DNA from: Candidatus Latescibacterota bacterium
GTDB taxonomy: Bacteria; Latescibacterota; UBA2968; GCA-2709665
DNA: 64,000 bases
Reading direction: 5' to 3'
Assembly: GCA_965248435.1 (NCBI GenBank)
Contig: OZ252100.1
Coordinates: 5,088,001 to 5,152,000 of the forward strand
Shown: positions 29,226 through 38,436 of the stretch, piece after piece
How the letters are laid out: every line of letters begins with the position of its first letter
Numbering within the stretch: the stretch's first letter is position 1
Translations under genes and position numbers: made by a program
The notes under the pieces: model-generated
Databases searched by the model: none
Told to the model about the DNA's origin: nothing
Seen by the model: the letters and a program-made list of their open reading frames with translations, nothing else

Positions 29226-30715
29226 CAGAAATTCACCTTTTTATTTTTCGGAAACAGGTCCGTGGCTTGAAGCCATCCCCCTTTGAATCCAACCTCGAGG
29301 ACCTTCCTGGTCTGGTTCGTTATCGGGAAAGGTTGCGCCCTCCGAACACCCACAACCCAGAATATCGTATTCCCGCTGACCAGAAGGGGGATTTCGTCTC
29401 GGAGGGGTTCCGGAATCTTGGCGTCGATCAGGAGATCACTCAACTTTCTCGTCCCCGACATACCGTATGGGTGGAAGCGATCTCCCGACTTCCGATTCCT
29501 CAGCAGCAGGCCTTCGGGAACGGTTGAGGCATCGAAAAAGGCCCGAAGCGGTCCGGGATTGTCCAGCTGGTCCCTCACGGCATCGAGGGGCAAAACGCGG
29601 GTCTCGAGGGTGGCGCCCAGGGAGGGGATCTCCGTTTCGCCGGGAACCGAGATTTGAACCTCGAAAGGGACGGTCGGACTGGAAAGGATCAGCCAATCAG
29701 CGTTCCGACTCGCCTTGATCTCGGGCGTCACCTGGAGCGATCCCGACGGCAAAGATTGCAATTCAAAAAGGCGTTGAATGGTCTTAAAGGAGATGTCTTC
29801 TGCGGGCAGCCCGAGCCCCCGAAAAGCCTTTTGAAGCAGACGCCGCTGAATCGATATATGATAACCGAAAATCGTTGTTATATCAAGAATTATTTTCTGT
29901 TTACCGCTGTGTTCAAGCGCGTTTCTGAAGGCCTCTTCCGATAGCCCATCCAGTAGTTCATCTTCGTGTCGGAAGATGTCGGCCGTCCTCGAAAGAACCT
30001 TCTCGATCGCCGGTGAACCGTGTGCCTCGAGTCGTGGAATCAGGTCGTGTCGGATCCAGTTTCGGATGAAACGCCGGTCAAAGTTCGTCGCGTCCTGGCG
30101 CGCCTGGATACCCCTGAAGGCAACGTAGTTCTCGACCTCATCTCGGGAGGTCTGCAGCAGCGGACGGATCCAGATCCCATCACGAACCGGCCTCATCGCG
30201 CCCAGGCCCCTCCGGCCCGCCCCGCGCAGCAGCCGAAAGAGGACAGTTTCCGCCTGGTCGCTGCGGGTGTGGCCGAGTGCGATGCGCGCGCATCCGGTCT
30301 TTTCCCGGACGGTGCGGAGGAAGCGATGCCGGGCCATCCTTGCGGCCTCTTCCGGTGAACGCCCCTTGAGCGAACCATCATTCAAATCGGCCAAGCCGCT
30401 GTGACAGGGGAGGCTGAGCCGTCTGGCGAGTTCGGATACGAACTCGGCGTCTTTCTCCGACTGCTCACCTCTCAGGCCGTGATTCAGGTGGGCGATGTGC
30501 AGCGTGTGCTCAAACCGGTCTTTGAGCCTGCAGAGGAGGTCCAGCAGCGCCACTGAGTCGGGACCCCCGGAAACGGCCACGAGGACGCCTTCTCCGGGAG
30601 AGATCATCTGGTGGCCGTTGACGAACTCGCCCACTTCGACCAAGAGATCCCGTCTGTCCAGATCTGTCTGGTGTTCCCGGCTCATTTGTGGCTCTTCACT
30701 CCGGCGGCCGCACAA
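29225..30715 (-). CDS. tilS: tRNA(Ile)-lysidine synthetase
   Basis: [22 protein letters not shown] and RNWIRH. Start probably 30685. Confidence 0.95.
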
Positions 30716-30766
30716 TTGCGGATTTGGGATTGCGGAATGATGGCTACTTCGACGTTCGCTATAATT

Positions 30767-30852: not shown

Positions 30853-31901
30853 GGATTCAATGACTAAGTGCAACACTTGGACTTGAAGACTTCAGCTGGT
30901 GTTTTGAAGTTAAGACATTTTCTTGGTCGGTTGTTGATCCGGTTCTGAATTTTCTTTAACTCGTGTTTGCTGACCTTTGAGAAGTCTGTCTTCTTGGGGA
31001 GGTATCTGCGGACCAGACCGATAGCGTTTTCCACAGCGCCTCGCTCCCAGCTGTGGAACGGTTTGCAGAAATAGGATTTGGTGCCAAGCACCTCGTTGAC
31101 CCGTTGATGTTGGCCGTTTTCGGATCCGTTGTCATATGTGATGCTCTTCCTCATGTGGGGAGGATGTCGCCCAAGGCGTCGATTAATCGCTTCGGCGACC
31201 TCCGAGGGTCCGTTCTTTGCCAGCTTAGCCAGGTGTAGGTATCTCGACGATCGCTCAAGACAAGCGCCAACGGCCTGTTTGCTCTCACGAGAGATGATGG
31301 TGTCGGATTCCCAGTGGCCAGGTTGTTTCCGTTTTTCGATGTAACGGGGACGTCGATCGATCGAAATACGGCCTGGAATGTGGCTTTCCCGGTGTTTTCG
31401 GGTATGCCACCGCGGCTTTCGTTTTTTGTGAGCTCGGGATAAGCAAGCAACCAGATCCCGCTGCTTGTGCACCTTTGGATCGTAGATATACTGGTAGATG
31501 GCTTCGTGGCTGATACCCGCGCTCGGACGCTCCTCGGGAAGCCTCCCAGCGATCAACTCGGGAGACCATCCTTGCTTGAGTTTGGTCTCGACATATCGCC
31601 GGATAACCGGATTCTTCAGCCGTTTCCGCTTGCCGGCCTCCCGCTTACGTTTCTCAGCCCTTCTGTGAGCCTGGAGGCCCGAGTAACTCTCAGCTATCGG
31701 GGACGGATTACGTTTCAACTCTCTTGAAATCGTGCTGGCGCTCCGGTCAAGGGCCTTGGCAATATCTCTAAGGCTTGCACCAGTGGCTCGACAAAGCGCA
31801 ATCTGCTCGCGTTCGTCTATCGTAAGATGCTTGTAATTGTTTCCCATACACTTAGGATAGGACAGTTGCTACCCTAAGTGTTGCACTTCCTTATTGAACT
31901 C
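30853..31901 (-). mobile_element. IS30-family insertion sequence
   Basis: 26-bp imperfect terminal inverted repeats: GGATTCAATGACTAAGTGCAACACTT (30853-30878) and the reverse complement of 31876-31901, GAGTTCAATAAGGAAGTGCAACACTT. Confidence 0.9.
30864..31847 (-). CDS. IS30 transposase
   Basis: STISRELKRN HTH, WSPELI, GHWESDT, ITYDNGSE and WERGAVEN. Confidence 0.96.
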   Translation of the reverse strand: MGNNYKHLTIDEREQIALCRATGASLRDIAKALDRSASTISRELKRNPSPIAESYSGLQAHRRAEKRKREAGKRKRLKNPVIRRYVETKLKQGWSPELIAGRLPEERPSAGISHEAIYQYIYDPKVHKQRDLVACLSRAHKKRKPRWHTRKHRESHIPGRISIDRRPRYIEKRKQPGHWESDTIISRESKQAVGACLERSSRYLHLAKLAKNGPSEVAEAINRRLGRHPPHMRKSITYDNGSENGQHQRVNEVLGTKSYFCKPFHSWERGAVENAIGLVRRYLPKKTDFSKVSKHELKKIQNRINNRPRKCLNFKTPAEVFKSKCCT

Positions 31902-31915
31902 GGGAACTGCCTTTG

Positions 31916-31938
31916 CGAGATACGAGATACGAGATACG
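31916..31938. repeat. (CGAGATA)x3 heptamer repeat
   Basis: cgagatacgagatacgagatacg. Confidence 0.75.
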
Positions 31939-32010
31939 TTCCTTGTCCAGTGAGACTCCGGCTGCCCCCGAGCGGTTTCGTTAAAATCTGGTCTTGCGGC
32001 CGAGCGTGGA

Positions 32011-33309
32011 CTACAACACGAGACGGTCGAACGACTTGACGAAGACCAGAAAGTCCAGGAAGTCGACGCGACCGCTGTTGTCGAAGTCGAAGGCCGGAGC
32101 GCTGCCGTTGAATGCAAGGGTAAAGGCGATGAAATCCAGAAAGTCGACCTTCCCGCTGTTGTCGAAATCGGTCCGCGGATCGGCGAATATCTGGACGCCG
32201 GTTCCGGATATCGGGAGTTCGATGACCTCTCGCTCGGGATCGTTAGTGAAGATGCTGAGCGTACCCTGAAACTCACCTTCTGCGCCGGGTGAAACCGCGA
32301 CCTTGAGGTCATAAGATGCACCGGCCTGTATTTCAAAGGAAGATTCCGACGGGGTAACGTTCTCCAGGTCCGATTCCACACCGGTGACGACCAGCTTGCC
32401 CTCACCCGAATTCGTGATCCTGACGGTCCTTCGCATCGTGCGGCCCACCTCCGAATCCCCGAAGTCGACCCGGTCGACCGCGAGTTCGATCGCAGGGGGC
32501 AGGGCGACGACCGCTATGGCCGGGATCGTGATCTCGAGGCTGGGCTGGTCGGTGTCGTTACTCGTCAGCGTCAGGCGGCCGGAGAGACTTCCATCCCGAA
32601 CCGGCATCAACGTGATCTGAATCGTACCGGTTTCGCCCGGTTCGACCGTCAGTTCGGTAACGTCGACGGAGATCTCGTCCAGGTCCGAGCTGATTCCACT
32701 GATGTCCAGCGTTCCGGTCCCGGTGTTCACGATATCGAGAGAGAGGGTACGTGAATCTCCGGGCTGGATCTCCGGCCCGAAGTCGAGCGTGTCGGCCGCC
32801 TGGATCATGGGGGTCGAGATCAGCTGCTGAATGACTTCGGCGGCCTTTTGCCGGTCGAACCTTCCCGAGCCGCTCTTGTGCCGGACGACACCCTCCCGGT
32901 CCACGACCAGCATCGCGTCGACCGAGCCGGCGGCGTTGACGCCGAGGGCGGTCACCCTTGAGGCCTGGAGGAGCAGTGGAAAGGAGACACCGGTCGTGTT
33001 TTCAAAGGCGTTTACCCCGGCCAGGCTGCCGTCCCACATGTCCAGCCCCAGGACCTGAACACCCTGATCTTCGAAGACCTGCCAGATTTCTGTTTCAATG
33101 GACGGACCCGTCCCGAAGCAGACACTTCAGTTGAATCCGAAGAAGTAGAGGACGAGCACGCCGTTTCTGAAATCGGTCGGAGCGTAATTCCTCCCATCGT
33201 GGCCGAGCAGCGAAAAATCAGGCAGTGCATCGCCCACGTTCAAGGCCTTGGCCTCGAGCGGCAGGGCAAGAAGACCCAGGATCAACCAAACCTTCGGTAC
33301 TCGTTCCAT
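32011..33309 (-). CDS. Predicted selenoprotein: signal peptide, AhpC/TSA-like redoxin (UxxC), two Ig-like domains and dockerin/EF-hand; 432 aa, Sec61
   Basis: ORFs 33127-33330 and 32011-33039 are in frame across TGA 33127-33129: YFFGFN-U-SVC-FGTGPSIETEIWQ. This aligns with FGFR-C-PVC-YGTGP of the adjacent paralog. Confidence 0.88.
33100..33113 (-). promoter_or_regulatory. Candidate bacterial SECIS hairpin
   Basis: GGACG-GGUC-CGUCC starting 13 nt after the UGA; G-led apical loop; identical in the second Sec gene. Confidence 0.75.
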
Positions 33310-33373
33310 TCCTTGCGCTCCTATGATCACTCCCGGCTGTTCGATTGCGGATTTCGGATTGCAGATTGCGGAT

Positions 33374-34078
33374 TCAGTTCAAGGGCTGGCCGAACGAGGA
33401 AGCGAAGACCAGGAAATCGCCGAAATCGACGCGGCCGCTGGCGTCCAGGTCGTAGGCCGTTTCATCGGTGTCGTAGGCCTGAGCGAAAAGGACGAAATCC
33501 AGGAAGTCGACGCCGCCGCTCTGGTCAAAATCGGCCCGCGGATCGGCGAGGGCGGAGTCGCTGTCCAAAAGTCCGGAGATGACGTTGGCCGCCCTTCTGA
33601 CATCCTCAGGCTGGGAAGTGCTGATGTGACGGATCACTCCCCCCTGGTCGATGACCATCAACGCGTCGATCTGACCCACAATATTCACCTCGAACCTGTT
33701 CACAGCCGTTTGGGCGGTCCCATTCAACAGCAACGGAAATGTCGTGCCGGTGATCCTGCTGAAATTCAAAACTCCGGACTCACTCCCGTTCCACATCTCG
33801 ATGCCGAGCACCTGAAGGTCACGGTCTTTGAAGGCCTGCCATATTTCACGCTCGACGAACGGGCCCGTTCCATAACATACGGGACAGCGGAATCCGAAGA
33901 AATAGAGGACGAGGACCCTCCCGCTGAAGTCGTCAGATTCATACGTCCCTCCTCCGAGCGCGTCCAGGGCGAAACCGGGCGCCTGATCGCCGACGTTGAT
34001 CGCGGAGATCAGGGTGGGCAGTGAAAGGGATGCAGCGAGGACCCAAAGAATAAGATAAGCTGACGGCCGTCTTTTCAT
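33374..34078 (-). CDS. Secreted AhpC/TSA-like redoxin (CxxC) with dockerin/EF-hand; Cys paralog
   Basis: Signal peptide, VGDQAPGF, FGFRCPVC and two DFDxSGxVDF repeats. Confidence 0.88.
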   Translation of the reverse strand: MKRRPSAYLILWVLAASLSLPTLISAINVGDQAPGFALDALGGGTYESDDFSGRVLVLYFFGFRCPVCYGTGPFVEREIWQAFKDRDLQVLGIEMWNGSESGVLNFSRITGTTFPLLLNGTAQTAVNRFEVNIVGQIDALMVIDQGGVIRHISTSQPEDVRRAANVISGLLDSDSALADPRADFDQSGGVDFLDFVLFAQAYDTDETAYDLDASGRVDFGDFLVFASSFGQPLN

Positions 34079-34105
34079 CCAGGTCTGTGCCTCGGATCAA
34101 ACGTT

Positions 34106-35125
34106 TCAGCCCAGAGGCCTGTTGAAGGATGTGGCAAAGATGATGAGATCTCCGAAATCGACCCGGCCGCTGGCGTCCAGGTCGAACGCCGGGTCCGTGG
34201 TGTCGAAGGCCTGCGAGAAGCGGACGAAGTCCAGGAAATCGACCTCGCCGCTCCCGTCAAAGTCGGTTCGGGGATCGGCGAAGCGGACGACCGTCTCTCC
34301 GGAGAAGGGGATCATCAGCTCAGGCGTGGCAGGGTCGTTGCTCAAGACGCTCAACGTCCCGGAGAAGGGCCCCTCCTCGGCCGGCGTTACCGTGACGTTG
34401 ATCTCGTGACTCTCTCCGGGGGGGATACTTATCCCTGAGATGTTTGTCGTGATCTCAGACAGGTCGGACCGGACCCCCGTGATATCGAGAGGGGCCGTGC
34501 CAGAGTTGATGACTTCCAAAGTGAAGGTCCTGGATACGCCCGACTCGAGTTGCGAGCCGAGGGTCAGGGCGTTAACGCGCGTCTCAATCGCGGGCTTGTC
34601 GAGAAGCTCCGTAATGGTTTTCGCCGCGACGTCTATCGATTCCCCCGCGAAACGGATGATGCCCTGCTGGTCCGCGACGATGATGTCATCGATGCGACGC
34701 AAAACGCCACTGTAATCGGTCGCGTAGAGGTAGTTTTCGAGGGGCATACCATTCGCATCGAAATTCGTCCTGCTGGCGGCGCGCAGTAGAAGCGGAAAGG
34801 TCACGCCCGTGATCGCCCTGAAGTTGTCCACGCCCGTCGCGCTCCCGTTCCAGATGTCCAGGCCGAGAACCTGCACGCCCTGGTCCTCGAACGCCTTCCA
34901 TAGTTCTTTTTCGATGGACGGACCCGTCCCGTAGCAGATCGTTCAGTCGAAGCCGAAGTGATACAGGACGATGACCTTACCCTCGAAGTCCGCCGACCTG
35001 TAGGTGTCGCCAATGCCGTCATGCAGGGCAAAGGGGGTAAGCGGTCTTCCCACCTCGGCCGTCACGCTGGCAAAGCCGAGGCACAGGAGGACCGCTGTCA
35101 GGGCCGGTTTGGCAAGCTTGAACAA
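34106..35125 (-). CDS. Predicted selenoprotein: signal peptide, redoxin (UxxC), one Ig-like domain and dockerin/EF-hand; 339 aa
   Basis: ORFs 34943-35125 and 34106-34876 are in frame across TGA 34943-34945: YHFGFD-U-TIC-YGTGPSIEKELWKAF. Confidence 0.88.
34916..34929 (-). promoter_or_regulatory. Candidate bacterial SECIS hairpin
   Basis: GGACG-GGUC-CGUCC 13 nt after the UGA. Confidence 0.75.
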
Positions 35126-35164
35126 TTCTGTTCTGGCTCCTTCCCTCTTGAGGCTCGGCGTACA

Positions 35165-36712
35165 TCAGAAATGAGTGGTCAGCCGCATCTCCATCCCGCG
35201 GAACGGGAGCACCTGATAGCACGTCCCGGAGGTGCACGCCGTGCCTCCGCGACGTTTCCCCGCGAACAGGATGGCGTCGTGTCGTCCGAAAAACTGCGCG
35301 TTCAGATTTATCCCCCACCACGTCACCGGGTCGGTCTCGCGCTCGAAGGTCTCAGGCCTGTCCACTTCCACAGGGTCGGAGGACCGGTCTGTTTGTAAGG
35401 CCGCGCCGAAGCCTGCAGGGTGCTGCCAGGAGAGGGAGGCGTAGGTTTCCGTAAAAAGGGCAGACCCTTCGGGAGGATGAGCTGCCCGCTGCAGCTGGAA
35501 ATCGAATTCAAATCGGTGATCTGTCGGCGTGGAGGTGCCCAGGGTAAACCCCCCGACCCGTCGCCTTGAAATGCCTCGCAGCTCATCCTTGCCCCAGTCG
35601 AAAAAGGCGGTCGCGGTGAACTCGGGATAGAATCTATCGAAGTCCATCTCCAGGTATTGCTCTTCGAAGTCCCTGCTGATGTCGGCGATGTCGTTGCGCC
35701 CCCGGCTCAAGTTGGCCGTAAACGTGGCGAGCCCGGGCTGGTTGTAGGTCGCCTCTATCTGGTAGCCCCTTTCGTTCTGCGGGAAGAGGACGTGTGTGGC
35801 CCGGTTGAGCAGGTATGCGCTATGTTCTCTGACCAGGGACGGCGGATCGTTGACCTGCGAAGAGAGAAGATCGTCGGTCCTGAGTGAAAATCCGTCATAG
35901 TCCTTGTACTCGAAGCCGAATCCCAATCGGGTTCCGCCGAGGTCTCCGGACAGGTAGAAAGCCCGACCCTCTTCTTCCACTCCGGCCCGGTTGGCGATCT
36001 CTCCGTACAGACTCGCGTAAATGTCCTGAATCCCGGAGCGCTCGATCAGGGGGGTCAGTTCGATGCTCCCGATGCCCGACCAGACCCAGTTCGAATCCAG
36101 ACGCCCCGGATCGAGTGCGACCCACGTCCCGCCTACCCTCAGAGGATCCAGGAGCCGGACAGAGAGTTCGCCGCCCGCGACCCAGTCCTGTCTCCGATCC
36201 AGCCCCGATATGTCCGGTGGGACATCCGCCCTCACGGGTCGCCCCACGAGGGCCTTCGCCTCCGCCCGATTGCCGATCCAGGAGACTATTCCCCCTTCCA
36301 GGTCCTGGGAGGGGGTGTAGCGCCTGCGAAAATTGTTGTCTTCGAGGATGACGCCCGGAAGCTCGAAGGCCCTGAGGGTGAGTCCGCGGCCAAGGATGGC
36401 GTAGTAATTACCTGCCACGACCTCGGCGGAACCCAACGTCCAGCGCGCATATTTTTGGGACAGGTTGAGGATGCGTCGATCCTCGCCCAGGGCCTCGAAG
36501 ATTTCGGCGCGGAGTCCGACCTGGATCCTGCTGCTCGGGGCATACTCGAGATTGAACTGCTCGTAGACGGTCGAGATGTCCTCGGCATCCGAACCCGGCA
36601 CCTTGCCCCGCTGCACCTCCGTGACGCTGGACAGGACCACCTGGGCGCCCGCCTTCGCGAAAGAGAGCAGCAGGCCCAGGACCATCAGGCTACATTTCAG
36701 CACGATCAACAT
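35165..36712 (-). CDS. DUF6029-like outer-membrane beta-barrel protein
   Basis: Signal peptide, GNYYAILGRGLTLR, EYKDY and C-terminal GG.ACTSGTCYQV.PFRG...F; adjacent to tlpA. Confidence 0.7.
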   Translation of the reverse strand: MLIVLKCSLMVLGLLLSFAKAGAQVVLSSVTEVQRGKVPGSDAEDISTVYEQFNLEYAPSSRIQVGLRAEIFEALGEDRRILNLSQKYARWTLGSAEVVAGNYYAILGRGLTLRAFELPGVILEDNNFRRRYTPSQDLEGGIVSWIGNRAEAKALVGRPVRADVPPDISGLDRRQDWVAGGELSVRLLDPLRVGGTWVALDPGRLDSNWVWSGIGSIELTPLIERSGIQDIYASLYGEIANRAGVEEEGRAFYLSGDLGGTRLGFGFEYKDYDGFSLRTDDLLSSQVNDPPSLVREHSAYLLNRATHVLFPQNERGYQIEATYNQPGLATFTANLSRGRNDIADISRDFEEQYLEMDFDRFYPEFTATAFFDWGKDELRGISRRRVGGFTLGTSTPTDHRFEFDFQLQRAAHPPEGSALFTETYASLSWQHPAGFGAALQTDRSSDPVEVDRPETFERETDPVTWWGINLNAQFFGRHDAILFAGKRRGGTACTSGTCYQVLPFRGMEMRLTTHF

Positions 36713-37283
36713 CAGGTGGCTCTTCGGTCTCCTGCTCAGCGGGGAGCGCGGCCTCGATTGCGTTGAGCAGGTCCTTGTGTTGACTGGGCCTGAATCCGGA
36801 TAAACGAAGCAGGATTTCCCCGTCGGGGGCGACCAAAAGCGTGGCAGGCAGGGAAGTCACCTGGAACCGGCGCATGACCCCGCCATCGCTGTCGATCACG
36901 ACCGGAATGGTGATCTTTCTCGCCCTGATGAACGGTTTTACTTTCGTCCGACTGCGCGGTCCGTCTTCGTTGACCCCGAGTACGGTGAGACCGCGATCCT
37001 TGAAGCGTTCGTGGAGCCCCACCAGTTTCGGCATCGCCTTGAGACAGGGTTTGCACCAGGTTGCCCAAAAATCGATCAGGACGGGTCCGTTCTTCCGCAG
37101 TGCGGACAGCCTGATCTGTTTCCCCTCCGGAGTTGGGAGGCTGAAGTCGGGCGCCTGGGTCCCGGAGGTGGGTTGCGGCAGCAGCAGCCCGCATAGCACC
37201 AACAGGACCACGGGGGTGCCCCATTTTTGTGTGGACTTCAATTCTGAGGTACACATAAGGGCCTCCGGTCTCCGATGTCCCAC
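36690..37283 (-). CDS. TlpA-family disulfide reductase (exported)
   Basis: APDFSL, DFWATWCKPC and SLPAT. Confidence 0.9.
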   Translation of the reverse strand: MGHRRPEALMCTSELKSTQKWGTPVVLLVLCGLLLPQPTSGTQAPDFSLPTPEGKQIRLSALRKNGPVLIDFWATWCKPCLKAMPKLVGLHERFKDRGLTVLGVNEDGPRSRTKVKPFIRARKITIPVVIDSDGGVMRRFQVTSLPATLLVAPDGEILLRLSGFRPSQHKDLLNAIEAALPAEQETEEPPDVDRAEM

Positions 37284-37608
37284 AGGTTGGCTAAGTCTTT
37301 AAATGTCAAAATAAACAACGTGTTCTCTAATATATGTAAAGCGAGCTCCCCTGACAATATCCGAGGCGGGCGCAAATCTGCCCGTCAGGAATCGGGATTA
37401 GAAAATAGCCAAATGCGTGCCGCGATTCGAGTTTCGCTGCATGGCATTTATTTACAGTGGGATATAGCTGATTGTCAGGTTTTACGGATGGCCAGGGTCG
37501 GCCCGTGTGGTCGCAGGTGGGCTGCACGGTCTCACGATGACGTAAGAGGACCTACCTTTTAAAAGACGGGATGCAGCCGAGGGGTGGCGCTTTGGGTGTA
37601 GACCCTGA

Positions 37609-38436
37609 TCAGAGATTCGCACTCAGCCAGCTCAGGATTTCTTGAACCGGGTCGGCTTCACGCAGCAGGAAGTATCCGGAGGCCGCCCCCTGATAGCCCG
37701 TGAGTCGAACCGGACTCGCCGTCTGCTGCGCCATGGACTCGGCGGAGGTATAAGAGAAGCCGTCTCCGAAGGCGGCCAGAAACAGGACGGAGCTTGGCCG
37801 AAAGTTGGACAGGCCCTGAACATACTGCGGCCCGAGGCTGGGTTGCCCTTCCCTGTATTGTGGGGAGATAGAAACGGCCGTCTTGACCTCAGGATAGATG
37901 GACGAGCTTAGAAAGGCGAGGTTTCCGCCGATCTCGACCCCGATGACCGCGATCCGCCCGCTGTCCGCATCCTGGCGGGTCTTGATAAAGCCGATCGCGG
38001 ACCGGACGTCATCCAGCATCTGATTCACTTCGTCCGCCGTAAAAACGCTGAAGGGAGAGTAAACGCCGTTCTTGTCCGTACTCTGACCGTGTCCGCGCAT
38101 GTCGATGGCCAGGGTCAGGTAGCCGCTCCGGACCAACTTCGGGATGAATTCGGGGATAAGGGAGAACCACTGCGTGTGGTTCCCTGAGAACCAGTGGAGC
38201 AGGAGCACGACCGGCCGGGTGCCGCTCTGGTTGCCAGGGGTAAACCAGGTGCCGAAGATCGTGTAGCCATCGTCGGTGGCAAAGCTGGCCGGCTCCATCC
38301 TGACGATCTCGGCGGTTGTGTTCGTCTCTCCGCCTGTGGGCGAATCCTCTCCACAGCCTGCGCCGAACAGGAACAGAAGCAATAAGAAACAGTAACGGTA
38401 CGTGGTCATGGGGCTCTCCTGTTGGATGGTCAGCAA
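37609..38436 (-). CDS. Alpha/beta-hydrolase-fold lipoprotein (catalytic residues altered)
   Basis: Lipobox GAGC, VLLLH, IDMRGHGQS and GVEIG. Start probably 38409. Confidence 0.8.
   Translation of the reverse strand: MLTIQQESPMTTYRYCFLLLLFLFGAGCGEDSPTGGETNTTAEIVRMEPASFATDDGYTIFGTWFTPGNQSGTRPVVLLLHWFSGNHTQWFSLIPEFIPKLVRSGYLTLAIDMRGHGQSTDKNGVYSPFSVFTADEVNQMLDDVRSAIGFIKTRQDADSGRIAVIGVEIGGNLAFLSSSIYPEVKTAVSISPQYREGQPSLGPQYVQGLSNFRPSSVLFLAAFGDGFSYTSAESMAQQTASPVRLTGYQGAASGYFLLREADPVQEILSWLSANL

Follow-up and report, generated by a model that had tools for sequence, protein, structure and literature searches.

Within a 64,000-nucleotide (nt) stretch of the genome of a Candidatus Latescibacterota bacterium (contig OZ252100.1, positions 5,088,001 to 5,152,000; hereafter the window, whose own numbering is used below), five closely packed genes on the minus strand occupy positions 32011-37283. 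Read in their own direction, they encode a tlpA-like thiol:disulfide oxidoreductase, a DUF6029 outer-membrane beta-barrel protein, and three paralogous redoxins, which we call A, B and C. Here we describe this operon and argue, from comparison of sequences, that two of the three redoxin genes, A and C, almost certainly encode genuine selenoproteins, in which an in-frame TGA stands for selenocysteine (Sec, U) at the first position of a UxxC active site.

The tlpA-like gene (36690-37283) encodes a protein of 197 amino acids (aa) with the active site WATWCKPC, and its hydrophobic N-terminus is probably a signal anchor. It overlaps by 23 nt with the DUF6029 gene (35165-36712), whose 515-aa product has a signal peptide, a C-terminal Phe and, near its end, the cysteine (Cys) pair C493-x4-C498 in the context GGTAC-TSGT-CYQVLPF (35219-35236). 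Paralog A (34106-35125; 339 aa) has a TTG start and a TGA stop, and is composed of a signal peptide, a UxxC redoxin domain, one immunoglobulin (Ig)-like domain and a dockerin-like tail. Paralog B (33374-34078; 234 aa) is the Cys form, with the active site FGFRCPVC placed between a signal peptide and a dockerin-like tail. Paralog C (32011-33309; 432 aa when counted from the ATG at 33309, the frame being also open from an alternative GTG start at 33330) resembles A in having a signal peptide, a UxxC redoxin domain and a dockerin-like tail, with two Ig-like domains. The signal peptides of the redoxins are hydrophobic N-termini that were judged by eye from the sequence. The in-frame TGA codons lie at 34943-34945 in A (FGFD-U-TIC) and at 33127-33129 in C (FGFN-U-SVC), which is the position of the first active-site Cys in B (FGFR-C-PVC), and in both genes the homology extends on both sides of the TGA. 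Translation with table 11 splits A into open reading frames (ORFs) of 60 and 256 aa and C into ORFs of 67 and 342 aa, an internal codon being taken as the start of the second ORF in each case.

The host genome (5.67 Mb in 2 contigs, 97% complete) has the machinery required for Sec incorporation. The genes selA (569 bits), selB (371 bits), selD (372 bits) and the tRNA-Sec gene (74 bits) are all over their curated cut-offs and form one cluster (C1:1062487-1067069, minus strand), and ARAGORN reports a tRNA-SeC with the anticodon tca. The selD gene carries one in-frame TGA, and is for that reason probably a selenoprotein gene itself.

The in-frame TGA is a property of the redoxin family rather than of this one genome. 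Homologs of the redoxin domain are present in 39 of 41 close relatives. Across the phylum, 98 of 168 genomes have them, with one to four copies each, and all of these genomes belong to four families within a single class. Among the 150 homolog matches listed across the phylum, 144 have an in-frame TGA: exactly one TGA in 142, and a TGA together with another stop in 2; of the others, 5 have no stop and 1 has a TAA only. When Sec-type loci were extracted, the TGA was found at the UxxC column in every one of them (25/25, 24/24 and 13/13 in three sets that share some species and together comprise 62 loci), so that its position is not a matter of chance. The Sec codon of A aligns with a TGA or a Cys in all homologs, Cys being found at this column in B, in three other homologs (L050a, L084 and L085) and in almost all distant relatives. 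The latter were sought with the redoxin domain of B in 1.84 billion representative sequences, which gave 238 clusters at E ≤ 1e-10, and a CxxC motif, mostly CPxC, is present in 146 of the 148 listed sequences examined.

Bacterial Sec incorporation is directed by a hairpin downstream of the UGA, the bacterial selenocysteine insertion sequence (bSECIS). The four consensus rules, as given in section 5 of PMC13188914, are an apical loop of 3-9 nt, a stem of 4-16 bp, a G in the first two loop positions and a distance of 16-37 nt from the UGA to the loop, with a minimum free energy of -7.5 kcal/mol or lower. The hairpins of A (34916-34929) and C (33100-33113) have the same sequence, GGACG-GGUC-CGUCC, begin 13 nt past the UGA and fit all these rules (loop GGUC, 5 bp, 18 nt), their energy of -7.6 kcal/mol being barely inside the limit. 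In 500 synonymous recodings, a structure as stable as the native one appeared 4 times for A and 18 times for C. In the same test, 4-97 of the 500 recodings folded as well or better for 11 Sec sequences, compared with 116, 254 and 354 for three Cys homologs from other loci. Paralog B has a weaker hairpin (GAACG-GGCC-CGUUC), which was equalled in stability by 64 of 500 recodings. The codons under the hairpin are practically frozen among 25 distinct Sec sequences: at positions +5 to +9 these are GCG (14/14), GCG (15/15), GGT (24/25), CCG (25/25) and TCC (21/25). GGT is the rarest Gly codon in the genes of the window (31/198), and the neighbouring four-fold sites, in Val and Leu codons, vary freely. 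One subgroup has a compensated stem, AGACG/CGUCU, and a more distant family with another peptide (GAGPAF) has a re-registered hairpin, GGCGG-GUC-CCGCC. Genome-wide, the combination of a TGA and such a hairpin was found at the sites in A and C only.

Taken as proteins, A, B and C belong to the thioredoxin-like redoxins. All three match the Pfam family AhpC-TSA (cut-off 26) with 38.3, 53.2 and 47.6 bits, respectively, and B also matches Redoxin. The Ig-like domains, of the DUF1573/ASH/HYDIN type in Pfam, number one in A and two in C and are missing from B. The tlpA-like protein scores 94 bits with AhpC-TSA and 67 bits with Redoxin, and it reaches 102 bits with the ResA subfamily model of NCBIfam, which is under the cut-off of 170. 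An AlphaFold2 (AF2) model of C, with a predicted local distance difference test score (pLDDT) of 82 overall and of 50-80 in the redoxin part, shows a thioredoxin-fold domain followed by two ASH/HYDIN-type Ig domains and a helical tail. The redoxin domain of the model superposes on ResA of B. subtilis (1su9, 1st9 and 2h1b) over ~137 residues, with a template-modelling (TM) score of 0.78-0.83 on the target and a root-mean-square deviation (rmsd) of 2.7-2.9; the DsbE of Chlorobium and a PDI-like protein of Bacteroides also superpose, all matches lying at TM scores of 0.77-0.83 on the target and rmsd values of 2.5-2.9. None of the NCBIfam models for ResA, PrxQ and the known ResA-like selenoproteins exceeded its cut-off with A, B or C (the best was the ResA subfamily with 33-44 bits vs 170), and no selenoprotein model in the NCBIfam scan matched the redoxin domain. 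A peroxiredoxin function for A and C was considered and rejected: the peroxidatic motif PxxxTxxC/U, in the form in which PMC13188914 gives it, is absent, the sequences VIVLYHFGFD-U (A) and VLVLYFFGFN-U (C) having no Pro or Thr at the motif positions. Cytochrome c maturation was likewise rejected as the main role, no ccm or ccs genes being present in the locus or in the locus of a relative. The best explanation for the three proteins, judged from their sequences, is that they are exported ResA/TlpA-fold thiol(selenol):disulfide oxidoreductases. They would share the fold, the place of the active site and the export with ResA, TlpA and CcmG (DsbE), and would differ from these in having Sec for the first Cys in A and C, additional domains, and no cytochrome c maturation genes at the locus.

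These results bear on the original prediction, which had been made from the letters of the window. It had claimed three tandem paralogs that share an N-terminal signal-like stretch, a redoxin fold and an EF-hand tail, with FGFR-C-PVC in the middle gene and a TGA at the first Cys position of the outer two (33127 and 34943), whose ORFs are each split in two; all of these coordinates are confirmed, and the family match and the paired EF-hands are there in all three proteins. Its interpretation is borne out in part. The central claim, that the operon contains two unannotated selenoproteins and a Cys paralog, is strongly supported by the Sec machinery, the conservation of the TGA and the hairpin, and the export of the three proteins, their common fold and tail and their place after tlpA and the barrel are well supported too. 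Both the search for selA, selB, selD and tRNA-Sec and the alignment of U with C in homologs, which it had named as checks, came out in its favour.

A, B and C form one group (support 86/93), nested in the Sec forms, when the redoxin domain is analysed by maximum likelihood, and the relatives have one or two redoxin copies. The simplest reading of the sequences is that the third gene of the module was triplicated in this lineage, giving A, B and C, and that B then changed from Sec to Cys. A sequence from a short metagenome contig, P0005 (169 aa, 87-88% identical to B), has FGFS-E-PG-C, with a Glu at the first Cys of B, and may be an inactive or differently working copy.

The redoxin genes are part of a conserved module. 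The order tlpA, DUF6029 and redoxin (one or two copies) on one strand is kept in 19 Latescibacterota loci, with the housekeeping genes tilS-ftsH-folP next and with tlpA immediately upstream of the barrel gene in all 19, and in the family of the window the barrel gene adjoins the Sec gene in 19/19 genomes that have both. With the queries used, neither the redoxin family nor DUF6029 was found in genome G001 (97% complete), the only other one of the genus of the window, or in genome G008 of the same family (94% complete); the two are thus lost or absent together in these genomes. The tlpA-DUF6029 pair extends further. In a second Latescibacterota family the Sec-redoxins are located elsewhere, yet tlpA lies directly upstream of the barrel gene in 5/5 loci, and a Calditrichales genome has a Cys redoxin of the window's family, tlpA, DUF6029 and a further redoxin ending in a type IX sorting domain. 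Of 81 sampled Bacteroidia genomes, 61 contain DUF6029, and a TlpA-like gene lies at ≤1.5 kb from it in 27/31 Bacteroidia loci, mostly immediately upstream. The placement of the redoxins behind tlpA and the barrel, as originally noted, is a conserved arrangement, and the synteny survey that had been suggested shows the pair recurring in Latescibacterota, Calditrichota and Bacteroidia. One relative has a second, divergent module at L127 (G004:C1:4183000-4191500), in which a redoxin, tlpA and a DUF6029 barrel gene (25% identical) are followed at some distance by a TlpA-like redoxin that bears a dockerin-like tail; only Cys forms are present.

The assignment of the barrel to DUF6029 (PF19494) is clear, with 64.4 bits against a cut-off of 27, and protein-atlas clusters called DUF6029 score 0.97-0.98 for it. 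Its AF2 model is all-beta with ~24 strands (pLDDT 66), and the best structural matches are the usher pores PapC (Z 17.7) and FimD (Z 15.7), followed by TonB-dependent receptors, Occ channels and Wzi (Z 12-15). The C-x4-C motif provides the sole conserved Cys columns of the barrel, ~20 residues ahead of the C-terminal Phe, in 19/19 barrels of Latescibacterota and Calditrichales, and the same motif is present in 31/31 DUF6029 proteins of Bacteroidia. Comparison of sequences thus shows a barrel Cys pair that is invariant and tied to a TlpA-type partner across three phyla (Latescibacterota, Calditrichota, Bacteroidia), and makes a role for these cysteines more plausible. Strand parity in the model would place the Cys hairpin (490-501) in the last loop, on the extracellular side, with low confidence. 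In the literature, one paper uses HHpred to connect DUF6029 with polysaccharide porins similar to Wzi, and it makes no link with redox processes.

The tails offer a clue to where the redoxins may work. All three paralogs end in a ~60-aa paired EF-hand, dockerin-like module, which in C (32014-32205) consists of two Ca-loop/helix repeats of the form D-x-D/N-x-S-G-x-V-D-F-x-D-F and matches EF-hand_1 with 27.7 bits (cut-off 25.4). Each tail has two EF-hand stretches at the protein terminus, and potential cohesin partners are encoded in the same genome. A PDB sequence search with the tail gave only weak matches to EF-hand proteins and no dockerin. The genome contains 32 matches to the 64-aa tail module. 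Of 18 other ORFs examined, 11 have the module at the C-terminus and 7 have it near the N-terminus; a subtilase, a matrixin, BNR propellers and a sulfatase-modifying enzyme are among them.

There are 12 cohesin matches in the genome, 9 of them over the cut-off. In eight giant ORFs (1366-3116 aa) the cohesin domains are combined with a type IX sorting domain at the C-terminus; examples lie at C1:1800880-1802241, 1808501-1809856, 3465645-3466322 and 1537672-1539744. These gene structures suggest cohesin scaffolds that are fixed on the cell surface via type IX secretion. Among 40 Cys relatives of the redoxins scanned with Pfam, 31 have a type IX sorting domain over the cut-off, 4 have only the related FlgD-Ig domain, 2 have the Ig plus dockerin-like architecture of A and C, and 3 are tandem redoxins without a tail. 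On the strength of these 31 the wider redoxin family would consist mainly of surface or secreted cargo, and this, together with the cohesin scaffolds bearing type IX tails, makes a cell-surface location of the tailed redoxins plausible. The genome has one DsbD_TM gene, and a DsbD-type protein is a possible source of electrons.

Other features of the surroundings can be mentioned briefly. A promoter-like site (TTGTCA-17-TATATT, 10/12 consensus matches) lies ~46 nt upstream of tlpA on the minus strand (37329-37357); it is weak evidence, since chance alone would give 1.0 such sites and one was seen. Between paralog C and tilS there is an IS30-type transposase gene (30864-31847, minus strand) with an HTH_38 match of 69.5 bits and an rve match of 26.6 bits, under the cut-off of 32.6. 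In the relative L049, tilS-ftsH-folP follows directly after the redoxin gene, so that a local IS30-type insertion looks likely. A 7-nt tandem repeat of AATCCGC-like units occupies the spacer between B and C (33343-33374) and occurs again upstream of tilS (30714-30738, minus strand); an 11-mer of the repeat has 7 matches vs 1.7 expected, and it is possibly a dispersed intergenic repeat. In the short-read run X1, contig depth is about four times higher in the bin 33243-33418, and loose ends of several contigs fall at 33374. At the other end of the operon, the gap between an alpha/beta hydrolase gene and tlpA is ~330 nt in the window (37283-37609) vs ~3 kb in relatives (L048-L062), and in L049 this stretch holds an ORF of no known function and a GFO/IDH/MocA oxidoreductase gene on the opposite strand.

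Based on these observations, we propose the following working model, which as a whole we favour by a narrow measure. The UGA at the nucleophilic first position of UxxC would be decoded as Sec under the direction of the small hairpin that lies within the coding sequence, 13 nt downstream. The Ig-like spacers and the C-terminal, paired Ca-binding module of dockerin type would extend the redoxins. Reducing power would enter the envelope via a DsbD-type membrane protein and pass to the TlpA-like protein, which would act on, or together with, the single C-x4-C pair of the barrel. The tailed (seleno)redoxins would work beyond the periplasm, most likely docked on the type-IX-anchored cohesin scaffolds at the cell surface. 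There, Sec would attack disulfides or oxidants and so form a selenylsulfide with the resolving Cys, which would then be reduced again. The parts of this model that concern Sec coding, the fold, the conservation of the module and the Cys pair come out of the comparison of homologs. Where the redoxins work, which way the electrons flow and what the substrates are is inferred. The relay of the original prediction, from TlpA through the barrel cysteines to redoxins at the surface, would be compatible with all these observations.

In its most far-reaching form, the model would make the tlpA-DUF6029 pair a thiol-disulfide relay across the outer membrane, running from DsbD via TlpA and the C-x4-C hairpin to redoxins at the surface, which we regard as unlikely though worth stating. 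Within that relay, the surface redoxins would be type IX-anchored CPxC enzymes in Bacteroidota and Calditrichota and cohesin-docked Sec enzymes in Latescibacterota. DsbD and CcdA are inner-membrane proteins that use one essential Cys pair to relay electrons between a thioredoxin-fold partner on one side and another on the opposite side. They may serve as a working analogy for the barrel, with the difference that DsbD is helical and resides in the inner membrane, whereas DUF6029 is predicted to be a beta-barrel of the outer membrane.

It should be recognized that several observations weigh against the proposal. As regards the hairpin, the 60 nt past the UGA are no more stable than shuffled sequence (z = -1.29 and -0.27), and the case for a SECIS element is built on the small hairpin and its conservation. 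A search of Rfam (evalue mode, 31800-37400) gave no SECIS family and two matches at the level of chance. The G-T/A-G-P-S peptide dictates part of the hairpin's conservation, and because the compared sequences are related, the counts overstate their independence. The support for the clade of A, B and C is moderate only. As regards location, the Dockerin_1 scores remain under the cut-off of 22.9 in all three paralogs (20.2 bits in C, 17.1 and 17.0 in the others; the Cys ortholog P0015 reaches 22.5), and no Por_Secre_tail (type IX) match was found for A, B or C in the Pfam scan. The surface docking put forward in the original prediction is made more plausible by the cohesin scaffolds and by the type IX cargo among the Cys relatives, the dockerin match itself being sub-threshold. 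The outside placement of the barrel's Cys hairpin derives from strand parity in a region of the model with a local pLDDT of ~36. Finally, no tailed redoxin lies beside tlpA-DUF6029 in the second Latescibacterota family or in Bacteroidia. The pair therefore occurs without an adjacent tailed redoxin, and the redoxins may be accessory to it.

Some of these points are shared by a more conservative explanation, in which the selenoproteins are real and function only in the periplasm as reductases similar to ResA or CcmG. The tail would then be a Ca-binding stabiliser, and tlpA-DUF6029 would serve the folding, isomerisation or gating of the barrel disulfide, with no electron path leading outwards. 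The nearest structural neighbours, ResA and DsbE, are periplasmic, which fits this explanation, as do the sub-threshold tail, the lack of a known outer-membrane export signal in A, B and C, and the tlpA-DUF6029 loci without an adjacent redoxin (5/5 and 27/31). It accounts less well for the type IX sorting domains in 31 of the 40 scanned Cys relatives, for the presence of the same tail on typical exo-enzymes, and for the cohesin scaffolds with type IX tails in this genome; moreover, Ig-like spacers are typical of surface proteins. All in all we consider a purely periplasmic role rather unlikely, while taking it seriously.

A second explanation assigns the barrel another task. DUF6029 would serve the tailed redoxins mainly as a pore for translocation or as an anchor, much like an usher or a type IX partner dedicated to one cargo, and TlpA would do no more than keep the active site of the cargo reduced during export. 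The model of the barrel falls in the largest class, with ~24 strands, and its best matches are ushers. PapC and FimD are usher pores through which Ig-like subunits travel in the folded state, and the redoxins bear Ig-like domains; the adjacency of barrel and redoxin genes in all 19 genomes of the window's family that have both points in the same direction. However, the tlpA-DUF6029 pair is kept where the redoxin gene is not adjacent, a passive pore leaves the invariant Cys pair unexplained, and the likeness among large barrels is generic, as the similar matches to TonB-dependent receptors, Occ channels and Wzi illustrate. We therefore hold this explanation to be improbable, more so than a strictly periplasmic function of the redoxins.

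The selenoprotein assignment itself is challenged by the view that the TGAs are true stops or errors, the genes being pseudogenes, pairs of small genes or products of misassembly. This view can point to the split ORFs obtained with table 11 and to the public predicted proteins related to the redoxin family, which are mostly fragments. Against it stand the TGA kept in 144 of the 150 listed matches, its constant position at the active-site column, and the fact that the downstream piece alone would be missing both the signal peptide and the fold's first strand. In addition, one contig of run X1, which may be the source sample, spans the whole stretch with 0 differences; contigs of runs X5 and X8 cover the TGA of A (with 5 differing letters) and that of C (with 1), the positions of those letters not being given, so that X1 is the one run that bears on the TGAs. 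The conservation of the TGA column, the homology on both sides and the continued use of TGA as a stop make sequencing error, pseudogenes and a reassigned code very unlikely, and we give true stops or errors hardly any credence. Still less can be said for a genome-wide reassignment of TGA to another amino acid (as in code 4 or code 25), which has nothing specific in its favour beyond the frames that open when TGA is read as sense, and which is contradicted by the 22 of 25 family genes in which TGA is the stop codon, placed right at the conserved C-terminus, by the long frames with many odd codons and no homology that result from reading TGA as sense elsewhere, by the full Sec machinery, and by the restriction of the TGA to the catalytic Cys column.

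With A and C thus taken as selenoproteins, the kind of enzyme they represent is already known. Table 1 of a 2026 catalogue, which covers 119 prokaryotic selenoprotein families, includes UxxC forms of PF00578, PF08534 and cd02966, and the multi-domain form is absent from it (PMC13188914). Going by the descriptions given there, as opposed to a comparison of sequences, the AhpC-TSA/Redoxin selenoproteins in that catalogue share with A and C the Pfam families, the Sec-first UxxC motif and the computational nature of the prediction, and A and C would add a signal peptide, one or two Ig-like domains, a dockerin-like tail and the tlpA-DUF6029 context (PMC13188914). The known ResA-like, TlpA-fold envelope selenoproteins resemble them in fold and in their envelope location and differ in the motif, which is WAxxUGC there and FGFxUxxC...GPS here; of this operon, only the Cys-type tlpA product touches the corresponding model (50 bits vs a cut-off of 300), and A, B and C do not match it. 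We found no account in the literature of a protein combining a signal peptide, a Sec-redoxin, Ig-like domains and a dockerin-like tail, nor of the near-total reliance of such a family on Sec or of a tlpA-DUF6029 module, in a search to which the supplementary tables of selenoproteome studies did not belong. Texts on selenoproteins or dockerins of Latescibacter or Latescibacteria, as far as their accessible parts go, contained nothing on the topic, one paper merely listing a metagenome-assembled genome of the phylum. The idea that this architecture had not been described therefore has to be narrowed: UxxC redoxin selenoproteins as such are catalogued (PMC13188914, Table 1), and it is the multi-domain form and the tlpA-DUF6029 module that were not found in the literature.

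Two further systems are of help in picturing the surface. HBP35 of Porphyromonas gingivalis is a cell-surface type IX cargo protein with a thioredoxin-like motif (PMC2907840). It is of the thioredoxin type and reaches the surface via a C-terminal sorting domain (PMC2907840), a likeness of kind that it would share with 31 of the 40 scanned Cys relatives. It differs from A and C in being a Cys protein. Partners comparable to the TlpA-barrel pair are, to our knowledge, not known for HBP35. The cohesin-dockerin pairs of cellulosomes offer another parallel, in that a duplicated Ca-binding loop-helix module of 60-70 aa is found at the protein end of many exo-enzymes and giant cohesin proteins are encoded in the genome. 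Genes resembling those of cellulosomes have reportedly been described for Latescibacteria. The system proposed here would differ from these pairs in the Dockerin_1 scores under the cut-off in A, B and C, in carrying redox enzymes as cargo, and in having scaffolds with type IX sorting domains.

In summary, the operon described here adds a large and almost wholly Sec-dependent family to the prokaryotic selenoproteome. Since public gene calls truncate these genes, the intact Sec forms are nearly invisible in protein databases. If the proposed location is right, the products would be cell-surface selenoenzymes on a cohesin-dockerin display, a combination that we have not found described. The widespread and uncharacterised DUF6029 family gains a concrete redox hypothesis, which is open to genetics, as some Bacteroidia can be cultivated. 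Should the unlikely relay across the outer membrane turn out to be true, the tlpA-DUF6029 pair would represent a counterpart of DsbD in the outer membrane, and it would be the first pathway dedicated to bringing reducing power for protein thiols out of a diderm cell.

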